In this document: positions 21,056 to 23,221 of the stretch, piece after piece | How the letters are laid out: each line of letters starts with the position of its first letter | How positions within the stretch are numbered: the stretch's first letter is position 1 | Virus record (IMG/VR): IMGVR_UViG_3300028833_000072 | Reading direction: 5' to 3' (one strand) | Length of the DNA stretch: 64,000 nucleotides | From: a virus | Lineage: Duplodnaviria > Caudoviricetes | Notes under the pieces: model-generated | Databases searched by the model: none | The model's input: only the letters and a program-made list of their open reading frames with translations | Told to the model about the DNA's origin: nothing | Translations under genes and position numbers: made by a program

Positions 21056-23221
21056 ATATTTAATGACAATATTTTTAGTATATCTACATTAAAAGATAAT
21101 TATGATAAAGCTAAACATCAATTATCTTTAGTAGAAAATAATAAAATTGATGGATTAGATCCTATCGATTATTTATTTAAAAGATTTGAAATGAATGTAG
21201 ATCCAATTTTTTTTATTGAAAATGTATTACGTGCTCATTTACCTGAGTTTAAACGCCATTTACATGCTAATCAAATAGAATTAATTAGAGCCGCTTGTAA
21301 TCCTAATATTAGAAAAGTAGCAGCTATGTTTTCAAGACAAAGTGGTTATTAATATGCCAAATATATAATTAATTAGATAAAATTCTTTATAACCGTAATT
21401 TTTTATAAAGATAATATCAACATAGAATTAATATAAACATTAATTAATATATGTTAGAGTATATATAATATATATTAGTAAAATAAATATATATACCAAA
21501 CTTAATATAACTATTAAGAAAATTTTATTAAATTTTTTATAATATAATTGAAAACTGAATCTATAGCTTGTTTCGCTGCAGCTTTAATATGTATTTATCC
21601 TCAAATGCGAATAGGTATATTTACGCCGCGAATTAATCAGGCTGAAGTTTCTATAGGTAGAGCCACAGTATTCTTTCAAATGAATGAAGATAAAATACCT
21701 CATAAAATAGTTAAATTAACAAAACAAAAAATAGAATTATCTAACGGATCTTATATGCAAGCTGTATCTGGTTCTGATCAAAGTAATATTGAAGGTTTAA
21801 CATTTGATATAGCTGTTTTAGACGAAGCTCAAAAAATTTCTAATTATACTACTAGTGAAAGAATATTACCTATGCTTGATATATTTCCAGGCATAAAATA
21901 AATAAATTGCTGGGAAAATTAATAAAAATTAATCAGCATAATTTTATATAAATTATCAATGACTATTAAATTTATATTTATGATAATAAAGATATAGTCT
22001 TTTAAATATATTAGTGGAGGTACAAATGGCAAAATAATTAAAATAGGTACTCCTAAATCACGTAATCATTTTTATGAAAGCATTGAAGGTAAGAATAGTG
22101 CTGATACTGTTATTATAAGATCTCCTTGGTGGCAATGTGATCAATTATCAGCCAATGGTTCTATTATGCTGCCAGATCATACAGATCCAGAACATAAACG
22201 TATAAGAAAATACTCTACTTATGTATTAAACCTCATGCCTAAAAAAATTAAAATGGAATGAAATTTGTTCTATAATTATTTAATTACTGAAAAAAAATAT
22301 ATAATCAGTAATATTATATTAAGATTATTAAAATAATATGCAACGACTATATGATATTTATATTTTATAATGATAAAGTCTAAACTTATTAAATAATAAG
22401 AAATTTAAATATATTAAATATTAATATTAATTGATTTCCCTACTAGACCAGACATTTATGAACAAGATGGCGAGATGTCAGTTATAGATTTCCAAACACA
22501 GTACGAATTACAATTTGTAGATAGTGGATCTTCTTTCCTTTCTAAAGAAGATTTTGAACAGCTACGTAATGGTGATTTTAGCTGGCAAAAATATGGTGAC
22601 TTGAGTGAAAAATATTATGTAGGTATAGATTTTGCCGGTGCAGCTAACGGAACCGATTCAACAGCTATATCTATATTAAGATTAGATAAATTAACACAAC
22701 AAAGACAAAAAATATTTGCTGTAGAATTAAAAGGCATGCCTTTTCCTCAACAAATGAAGATTATATTATCTTTATTTACTGGTCCTAGGCCTAAATTTAG
22801 ATATAAAAAAATAGTAGCTGATGCTACCGGTGTAGGATTAGGATTAATTCAAGTTATGAAAGATCAAGGATTAGATATAATACCTATTACATTTAACGCT
22901 AAAGATAGATTTACGAATACTAATACTAATTATAAAACAACTATGTATAGAGCTATTTTAGCTGCTATACAAAATGATAAATTTAAATATCCTTCTTTGG
23001 ATAATGTACCGAAAAATGACCACGTGTTTTTACATAAGCAGTTAATGCAATGGAGTGACCTTGTGGTAGAATCGATAAAAAGCAGTAATAATATCCGCGT
23101 GGAAAGTAGCACAACTAATGAGGATTTTTGTGATAGTGATGCCCTTTCTTATTTTGCAACAGTAATAGATCAAAAACAGCATAAAATGCCCAGCGGAATT
23201 ACTTACCGTTCTAGCAGATAA
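21056..23221 (+). CDS. terL: Terminase large subunit; 4 exons ~21056-21346, 21551-21876, 22015-22259, 22434-23221 (~549 aa)
   Basis: Splicing restores Walker A SRQSG|KT; Walker B AVLDEAQ; coupling motif IIKIGTP; nuclease GIDFAG, ADATGVG, DFCDS. Start uncertain (ATA at 21056 behind GGTGA, or ATG at 21191). Confidence 0.88.
21347..21550 (+). other. Group I intron 1 of terL (204 nt, ORF-less)
   Basis: P1 GGU/GCC with U•G; P7 G(A)GUAUA/UAUACC; ends AAUUG; splits Walker A exactly. Confidence 0.85.
21877..22014 (+). other. Group I intron 2 of terL (138 nt, ORF-less)
   Basis: P1 AUGCU/GGCAU; P AAUUGCUGGGAAA; Q AAUCAGCA; R UCAAUGACUA; S AAGAUAUAGUCU; P10 UUCCA/UGGAG; CT|T join gives ML-GGTNGK. Confidence 0.9.
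22260..22433 (+). other. Group I intron 3 of terL (174 nt, ORF-less)
   Basis: P1 AUGGAAU/GUUCUAU; P AAUUACUG; Q AAUCAGUAA; R GCAACGACUA; S AUGAUAAAGUCU; P10 GAAAU/AUUUC; T|AT join gives KME-YFPTRPD. Confidence 0.88.

Follow-up and report, generated by a model that had tools for sequence, protein, structure and literature searches.

The large terminase gene terL was analyzed in a 64,000-nt window of the IMG/VR virus record IMGVR_UViG_3300028833_000072 (Duplodnaviria; Caudoviricetes), the source contig of which was 159 kb in length with 22% G+C and represented an AT-rich phage from sheep and goat gut metagenomes. Four stop-to-stop open reading frame (ORF) pieces in one common reading frame were found at 21050 to 23221 of the window, and joining of 21056 to 21346, 21551 to 21876, 22015 to 22259, and 22434 to 23221 gave 1650 nt, equal to 549 codons plus the stop codon. 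The contig was checked for further terL genes, and its terL copy number was one. The four exons and three putative introns, together with the predicted intron helices, were as follows.

21056 to 21346 (+): terL exon 1, N-terminal region to Walker A ...SRQSG; tblastn match to Bacillus phage G gp1 residues 14 to 93
21347 to 21550 (+): intron 1, 204 nt, 11% G+C, no ORF, group I-like; P1 21343-46/21356-59, hairpin A 21384-92/21403-11, hairpin B 21419-24/21450-55, candidate P7 21457-63/21492-97, P9 21501-07/21512-18, terminal G 21550
21551 to 21876 (+): terL exon 2, Walker A Lys-Thr and Walker B LDE, to ...ERILPM-L
21877 to 22014 (+): intron 2, 138 nt, 16% G+C, no ORF, compact group I intron; P1 21871-76/21890-95, P10 21884-89/22015-20, P4 21908-12/21934-38, P5 21918-23/21928-33, P6 ~21939-44/21950-55, P7 21961-65/21995-99, small P8 21971-75/21986-90, terminal G 22014
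22015 to 22259 (+): terL exon 3, GGTNGKIIKIGTP motif III region to ...KKIKME-; tblastn match to phage G gp1 residues 202 to 288
22260 to 22433 (+): intron 3, 174 nt, 11.5% G+C, no ORF, compact group I intron; P1 22253-59/22267-73, P10 22260-64/22434-38, P4 22285-89/22306-10, P6 22311-17/22333-39, P7 22345-48/22377-80, P9 from 22385 to 22400, terminal G 22433
22434 to 23221 (+): terL exon 4, end of the ATPase domain, nuclease domain, and stop codon; tblastn match to phage G gp1 residues 290 to 560

Bacillus phage G gp1 was an uninterrupted protein of 560 amino acids (aa) annotated as large subunit terminase, and the spliced frame was collinear with its residues 14 to 560 with zero residues lost at the junctions (tblastn): (i) residues 14 to 93 matched 21089 to 21346 (piece 1) at 50% identity, (ii) residues 94 to 288 matched 21551 to 22258 (pieces 2 and 3), with the second insert appearing as an alignment gap, and (iii) residues 290 to 560 matched 22436 to 23218 (piece 4) at 37% identity. 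The first alignment break was located at G93|K94 of phage G inside Walker A (SRQSG|KTES), where intron 1 corresponded to an exact gap separating these two residues. The second break was ERILPM|(L)GGTNGK, and the third was KKIKME|(Y)FPTRPD, with the tblastn break at KQD(M)|FP. The three intron sites were hence placed in conserved ATPase motifs, namely inside Walker A, about 10 residues ahead of motif III, and where the ATPase domain ends, respectively. Exon 2 had a Pfam Terminase_6N match (E=1.2e-4) and 75% identity to phage G gp1, and it could be aligned to T4-type phage gp17, with the alignment starting at the Walker A lysine (K166) and covering the Walker B/Glu block LDE. A relative of exon 4 (P0003) had a weak Terminase_6C match; a sequence search for solved structures with exon 4 alone found none, and neither the viral contig scan with exon 4 nor the metagenome contig scan with the exon 4 alignment returned relatives. 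The product of the joined frame displayed the T4-type TerL organization, namely an ATPase with SRQxGKT Walker A, Walker B/Glu, and motif III, plus an RNase H-like nuclease, in collinear order.

The exons had 24% to 32% G+C, and the inserts had 11.3% (intron 1), 15.9% (intron 2), and 11.5% (intron 3) with nine, four, and six in-frame stops, respectively. The three lengths (204, 138, and 174 nt) were each a multiple of 3 (and of 6), which left the exons in one frame; this was probably a coincidence and not a rule of the family, because the introns of a related locus (L022) were read as 182 and 190 nt. The original prediction, made from the sequence alone, had split terL at 21347 to 21550, 21877 to 22014, and 22260 to 22433, and these boundaries proved exact; its Walker A (SRQSG|KT) was recovered in the phage G alignment and its Walker B in the gp17 alignment, and the alignment to TerL that it had proposed as a check was collinear across all junctions.

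Metagenomes from the gut of sheep and goats contained the stretch, as did a metatranscriptome from sheep gut. Three RNA runs and an independent DNA run supplied contigs that were placed on 20800 to 23500. Two contigs of RNA run X4 carried joined exons with zero mismatches: (i) 21662 to 21876 was joined directly to 22015 to 22096 with the 138 nt skipped, and this joint could slide by at most 2 nt, with only the U|...G| placement fitting group I, and (ii) 22077 to 22259 was joined to 22434 to 22735 with the 174 nt skipped and no slide possible. Precise excision and exon ligation were hence seen in RNA for introns 2 and 3, and two of the three junctions sought by the original prediction (21876|22015 and 22259|22434) were found exactly. 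Run X4 additionally contained an unspliced contig over intron 3 (22244 to 22446) and a contig within intron 1 (21396 to 21546), and a contig of DNA run X3 (21039 to 22150) retained introns 1 and 2. Splicing of introns 2 and 3 in vivo was indicated by these data.

All three introns had a P1 U·G pair at the 5′ splice site (UGGU/GCCA, UAUGCU/GGCAUA, and AUGGAAU/GUUCUAU in introns 1 to 3, respectively) and a terminal G (omega-G) at 21550, 22014, and 22433, the latter two of which were fixed by the RNA junctions. P10, in which the guide stretch immediately 5′ of the P1 G pairs with the opening bases of the 3′ exon, was composed of UUUCCA/UGGAGG in intron 2 (8 bp by duplex folding, -7.6 kcal/mol) and GAAAU/AUUUC in intron 3 (-1.6 kcal/mol), and duplex folding found no P10 pairing in intron 1. 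The RF00028 consensus core strings AAUUGCGGgAAA, AAuCCGCAGC, GUUCAaAGACUA, and gAAGAUAUAGUCu (P, Q, R, and S, respectively) were matched by AAUUGCUGGGAAAA, AAUCAGCA, AUCAAUGACUA, and AAAGAUAUAGUCU in intron 2 and by AAUUACUGAAAA, AAUCAGUA, GCAACGACUA, and GAUAAAGUCU in intron 3. In both introns, P/Q paired to form P4, and R/S paired to form P7 with its bulged nucleotide and G-C pair; the P4 to P9 helix pairing was verified by script, as were the helices listed for intron 1. Compensatory changes were present across related cores in P4 (UGCUG/CAGCA, UACUG/CAGUA, UAUUG/CAAUA, and UAUGG/CCAUA) and in P7 (GACUA/UAGUC versus GAUUA/UAAUC). Intron 2 was too short to accommodate P2 or P9, and P5 was almost absent from intron 3. 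Introns 2 and 3 were secure as spliced group I-type introns. Spliceosomal and group II introns were considered and rejected, with no GU..AG or GUGYG..AY ends observed.

Covariance model R1 was built from the 3′ domains (J6/7-P7...P7′-P9) of 11 similar cores, all of them outside the terL of the window; it was limited to the 3′ domain, and MAFFT whole-intron alignments misplaced the P/Q region and the intron 2 S element. Within the terL gene, the top R1 match was intron 3 (27.2 bits, E=0.002), followed by intron 2 (22 bits, E=0.02), which lent modest model-based support to these two introns. A third match (21502 to 21616) straddled an intron/exon border and looked spurious.

Intron 1 was the weakest of the three, and from its sequence it was probably a group I intron that would likewise be removed from terL RNA. 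Its R-like GUUAGAGUAUA and S-like AUAUAUACCAAA elements gave a candidate P7, G[A]GUAUA/UAUACC, which two compensatory pair changes (A-U to U-A and C-G to A-U) set apart from the class consensus G[A]GACUA/UAGUCC; the GUUCAGAGACUA/GAUAUAGUCCA class of R/S cores was found elsewhere in this genome and in L021. Downstream of the candidate P7 came AAA, a hairpin forming P9 (CUUAAUA/UAUUAAG), and a tail, all closely similar to those in intron 3. An insert in the tail-fibre gene (~35209 to 35408, minus strand) harbored a P1 (CGGU/GCCG), a CAAC junction, and an AUAUGCU S-like block as in intron 1, and its last 10 nt (AAUAUAAUUG) were common to intron 1. The UCAAC junction was shared by the two inserts, and the tail-fibre insert suggested an alternative intron 1 P7, AACAUA/UAUGUU. 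Compared to the window, intron 1 of the related locus L029 had 6 substitutions and 13 gap columns, and five of the six substitutions and all indels were located in predicted hairpin loops, a pattern that would fit a structured RNA under the predicted fold. With regard to the intron features claimed by the original prediction, placement after a P1 U·G and termination in G applied to all three inserts, and clear P10 applied to introns 2 and 3 as proposed; the P7 core stood for introns 2 and 3 (R/S strings and verified pairing) and was ambiguous for intron 1, which had two P7 models.

The sequence comparison was also applied to 16 phage-G-like terL loci from IMG/VR and to closer relatives from ENA assemblies, and terL sites 1 and 2 were insertion hot spots. 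Inteins were inserted at site 1 (Walker A) in L012, L013, L014, L017, and L019 and at site 2 (PM|GG) in L012, L014, and L021; these inteins of the six loci were in frame and 138 to 632 aa in size, and the window had introns at the same places. L008 (1018 to 1762) and L010 (4327 to 5071) each contained a 743-nt insert at site 2 that scored 119.7 bits with RF00028. This insert occupied the same PM|GG position as intron 2, and its P and Q strings closely resembled those of intron 2 (AAUUGCUGGAAA and AAUCAGCAGC versus AAUUGCUGGGAAAA and AAUCAGCA); the S core GAUAUAGUCUU was identical, and R was UCAACGACUA versus UCAAUGACUA. The L008 insert further contained P2, long P5, P6, P8, and P9 helices, and a TnpB-like ORF fragment, whereas intron 2 was stripped to 138 nt. 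L016 (4351 to 5932) carried at site 2 a 1580-nt insert with a TnpB-like ORF (374 aa) and an R/S core; the co-occurrence of a group I core and a TnpB-like ORF at site 2 in L016, L008, and L010 was an IStron-like arrangement.

More complex organizations were found in L022 (397 to 4628) and L025, in which terL was in at least six pieces and group I-like cores lay a few nucleotides from the sites of the window. These two loci displayed an intein ending in VHN|S, then ~270 nt in which P/Q-like elements occurred twice, a micro-exon of 30 nt that encoded NGKLIKIG, and inserts behind KIG and QLKWV. A group I-like core was located just upstream of the nuclease-domain ORF in L003 to L005; in L003 (1 to 205) and L004 (1 to 147), relatives with 74% identity, this ORF started with MELKFVD right after the core, and L004 had a divergent gene start (AAGGAGG...ATG) further upstream, where L003 and L004 differed.

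Two closer relatives, L002 and L029 (82% to 94% nucleotide identity), contained introns 1 and 2 and precisely lacked intron 3 (MEY|WPT). Intron 2 was identical at 137 of 138 positions in both; between the window and L002, 1 of 138 intron 2 positions was changed versus 25 of 123 flanking third-codon positions (20%; Fisher P=4e-8), the mismatches starting 9 to 13 nt from the intron 2 splice sites. The single intron 2 change versus L002 (G21914A) kept a possible UUUCCAG/CUGGRAA pairing. Exon 1 was ~13% diverged from that of L029, with only two differences in the last 55 nt next to intron 1. The near-identity of intron 2 and of the exon 1 edge, together with the precise absence of intron 3, pointed to a recent exchange or homing event in which no endonuclease encoded by the intron took part; the mechanism is conjectural, and collaborative homing by a free-standing nuclease was a known precedent (PMC3984707).

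The interpretation favored, with a probability of about 0.85, was that terL is transcribed as one pre-mRNA with three ORF-less miniaturized group I introns and that splicing restores TerL. The last exon U of each intron would pair with the guide-sequence G in P1, the P4-P6/P3-P7 core would perform splicing, the terminal G would dock in P7 for exon ligation, and P10 would align the 3′ exon in introns 2 and 3; splicing would yield a frame of 549 codons for a T4-type large terminase, a relative of Bacillus phage G TerL. The introns appear to have lost P2, most of P5, P8 or P9, and any homing-endonuclease gene, and they still look mobile or recently exchanged; the inteins and larger group I introns of relatives at or near the first two sites would be as expected for homing elements. 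The introns are presumably autocatalytic. As for the proposal that an essential gene depends on three self-splicing ribozymes, in vivo splicing was indicated for introns 2 and 3, and the dependence itself is presumptive.

Several results weighed against this interpretation. The RNA contigs left 21255 to 21345 uncovered, and hence no contig extended over the intron 1 junction; moreover, the evidence for joined exons consisted of assembled contigs of one RNA run, which record the presence of forms and give no read counts or ratios. The Infernal group I scan suggested in the original prediction turned out negative: Rfam RF00028 had no match in the window at the gathering score (cmscan), none at E<=10 in 20900 to 23400 (2.5 kb), and none with intron 1 alone, and it detected zero of the three introns at its curated threshold. 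Over 103 kb, the R1 E values were only 0.1 (intron 3) and ~1 (intron 2), and R1 had no match to the intron 1 candidate core. The R..S regular expression was not specific: it gave nine matches, versus 3.0 on average and at most 9 in Markov-simulated AT-rich sequence. A composite P/Q+R/S expression was likewise uninformative as a significance test, and neither expression was used as evidence. Intron 1 had two competing P7 models, and its P3 and P8 could not be placed.

The start of the gene was a further difficulty of the same kind. Exon 1 had no in-frame ATG, GTG, or TTG before Met46, and it was therefore not certain that full-length TerL is made from this particular genome. Position 21056 was ATA, located behind a GGTGA Shine-Dalgarno-like site at good spacing; terL of the relative L029 started with TTG behind an AAGAGG site, and the aligned window codon was TTT at 21059. 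A search for an upstream exon or a frameshift supplying a start codon yielded only the ATG at 21063, which is out of frame and adjoins a T5 run. An identical start region (window 21045 to 21095) was present in the independent DNA contig of run X3.

Three other explanations were considered. It is quite possible, albeit at less than even odds, that the inserts are removed from RNA but are decayed group I remnants (above all intron 1) whose splicing requires a phage or host protein cofactor or another trans-acting factor: the inserts had only 138 to 204 nt and 11% to 16% G+C, P2 was missing, P5, P8, or P9 was tiny or missing, the helices were almost all A-U, RF00028 failed on all three, and some phage introns splice in vivo and not in vitro (PMC11878797). 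Set against such decay, the P4/P7 cores, U·G, terminal G, and P10 were intact in introns 2 and 3. It is very unlikely that the joined forms in the RNA library are DNA of co-occurring intron-less strains and that terL of the window is an insertion-disrupted pseudogene. An intron-3-less DNA allele did exist (L002 and L029), run X4 contained the unspliced intron 3 contig and the intron 1 internal contig besides the joined forms, and exon 1 had no canonical start codon; nevertheless, the joined contigs had zero mismatches over 183+302 and 215+82 nt where the intron-3-less relatives were ~7% to 18% different, intron 2 was kept in every DNA source (L002, L029, and the X3 contig), the exons were intact with substitutions mostly at third codon positions, and only a single terL copy was present in the contig. 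Short of formal exclusion, carry-over of DNA from an intron-less strain was hence an unlikely source of the joined forms, because the intron-3-less relatives differed by ~7% to 18% in these exons and intron 2 was found in every DNA source.

A bypass at the protein level, through recoded stops, degenerate mini-inteins, or translational hopping, would accommodate the three lengths that are multiples of 3, the exons in one frame, and the use of sites 1 and 2 by inteins in relatives, and it is nonetheless most improbable: the inserts contained four to nine in-frame stops (TAA and TAG, and also TGA in intron 3) while the neighboring long ORFs were open under the standard code, they had 46 to 68 codons, far below intein size, phage G TerL had no residues at the insert positions, RNA contigs without the inserts were present, and the L022 introns (182 and 190 nt) were not multiples of 3. 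Beyond the preferred reading of terL as a gene restored by splicing of three group I introns, a tentative extension is that the 138-nt intron 2 may be an autonomously self-splicing ribozyme composed of P1, P3-P8, and P10 only, and that it may constitute, with several similar mini-introns of this genome, a still-mobile family spreading without its own endonuclease; this is somewhat doubtful as yet.

The terL neighborhood and the remaining genome contained further elements. Directly upstream of terL, two stand-alone ORFs (19891 to 21040, plus strand) had matches to Hom_end (E=0.008, weak) and Hom_end_hint (E=8.6e-6); the second of them was in the terL frame, but TAA and TGA lay between, and the ORF pair was kept in L029 to L032. 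Just downstream of terL, an 833-aa ORF (23419 to 25920, plus strand) contained four or more HTH_17 repeats (E=3e-46) together with a weak NUMOD1 match, and its product was a candidate DNA-binding or nuclease-like protein. An AT-rich unit of ~270 to 290 nt (e.g., ...TTTCACGAAACATATTTATATCTTAATAC...) was present in about three tandem copies at 18900 to 19700, between the subtilase gene and the terL neighborhood.

Group I-like cores were also found at 14593 to 14790 and 13932 to 14034 (both on the minus strand) within the ORF-poor gap 13851 to 14733: one had a P1 (CAUCCU/GGGAUG), R UUAACGAUUA, and S GAUAUAAUCUA, and the second scored 29.5 bits with R1. Six more R/S-type cores were located on the minus strand of the 159-kb contig (94233 to 94305, 91654 to 91725, 73459 to 73527, 70216 to 70254, 67881 to 67942, and 67696 to 67734; L026 to L028); four of the six had readable P1 U·G hairpins, and two of the six, together with the core at 14.6 kb of the window, had near-identical 3′ domains. 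The genome seems, from these sequence matches, to be rich in mini group I introns, the regular expression alone being not specific. A blastn-short search of the inserts against the contig returned low-complexity noise only.

Gene callers can mistake an essential phage gene for four orphan ORFs, and RF00028 is blind to AT-rich miniature introns; terminase and further core genes will therefore be under-called when rumen and other gut phages are annotated automatically. The locus also offers a tractable case of intron turnover and endonuclease-less mobility, in which intron 3 presence varied, intron 2 was near-identical in diverged genes, and the sites were shared with inteins and larger introns. 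The introns are natural candidates for minimal group I ribozymes, and the 138-nt one had four core elements plus in vivo junction evidence. Intron 2, if autonomous, would be considerably shorter than the minimal natural model, the Azoarcus pre-tRNA-Ile group I intron of ~205 nt. Both had a compact bacterial-type group I core without an ORF; unlike the Azoarcus intron, with its P2, P8, P9, G-C-rich helices, and robust self-splicing, intron 2 was about one-third shorter, contained no P2 or P9, and had 84% A+U. The Azoarcus intron is among the solved group I structures (PMC3984707), and most group I introns exceed 200 nt (PMC3160393).

Terminases are among the typical phage targets of homing elements (PMC3984707), and the novelty assumed by the original prediction has to be set lower, the phenomenon having already been published (PMC12880540, PMC11878797). 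In Jug (jumbo gut) phages, terL is in two or three fragments by small group I introns with a mean of ~206 nt, metatranscriptome reads across the junctions support splicing, and many introns are present per genome (Sci Adv 2026, PMC12880540). The phage described here was likewise a gut-associated large phage with terL split by small group I introns and splicing seen in a metatranscriptome, but it belonged to another lineage with Bacillus phage G-like TerL, 22% G+C, and a ruminant gut origin; the introns of the window escaped RF00028, and intron 2 (138 nt) was well below the Jug mean (PMC12880540). In Bastillevirinae, terL is split by two or three group I introns with splicing in vitro and in vivo (PMC11878797), and multi-intron genes include TerL, polymerase, and RNR of Bastillevirinae and orf142 of Staphylococcus phage Twort, some introns of which splice only in vivo (PMC11878797; PMC3984707). 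The window shared with these phages the presence of two or three group I introns in one essential gene at conserved motifs, whereas introns in those phages have a mean length of 802 nt and frequently contain genes for homing endonucleases, and those of the window were 138 to 204 nt and ORF-less. The splitting of an essential phage gene by several group I introns is already known from Jug phages, Bastillevirinae, and Twort, and the distinctive features of the present terL are the 138-nt size, the 11% to 16% G+C, and the invisibility of its introns to Rfam.

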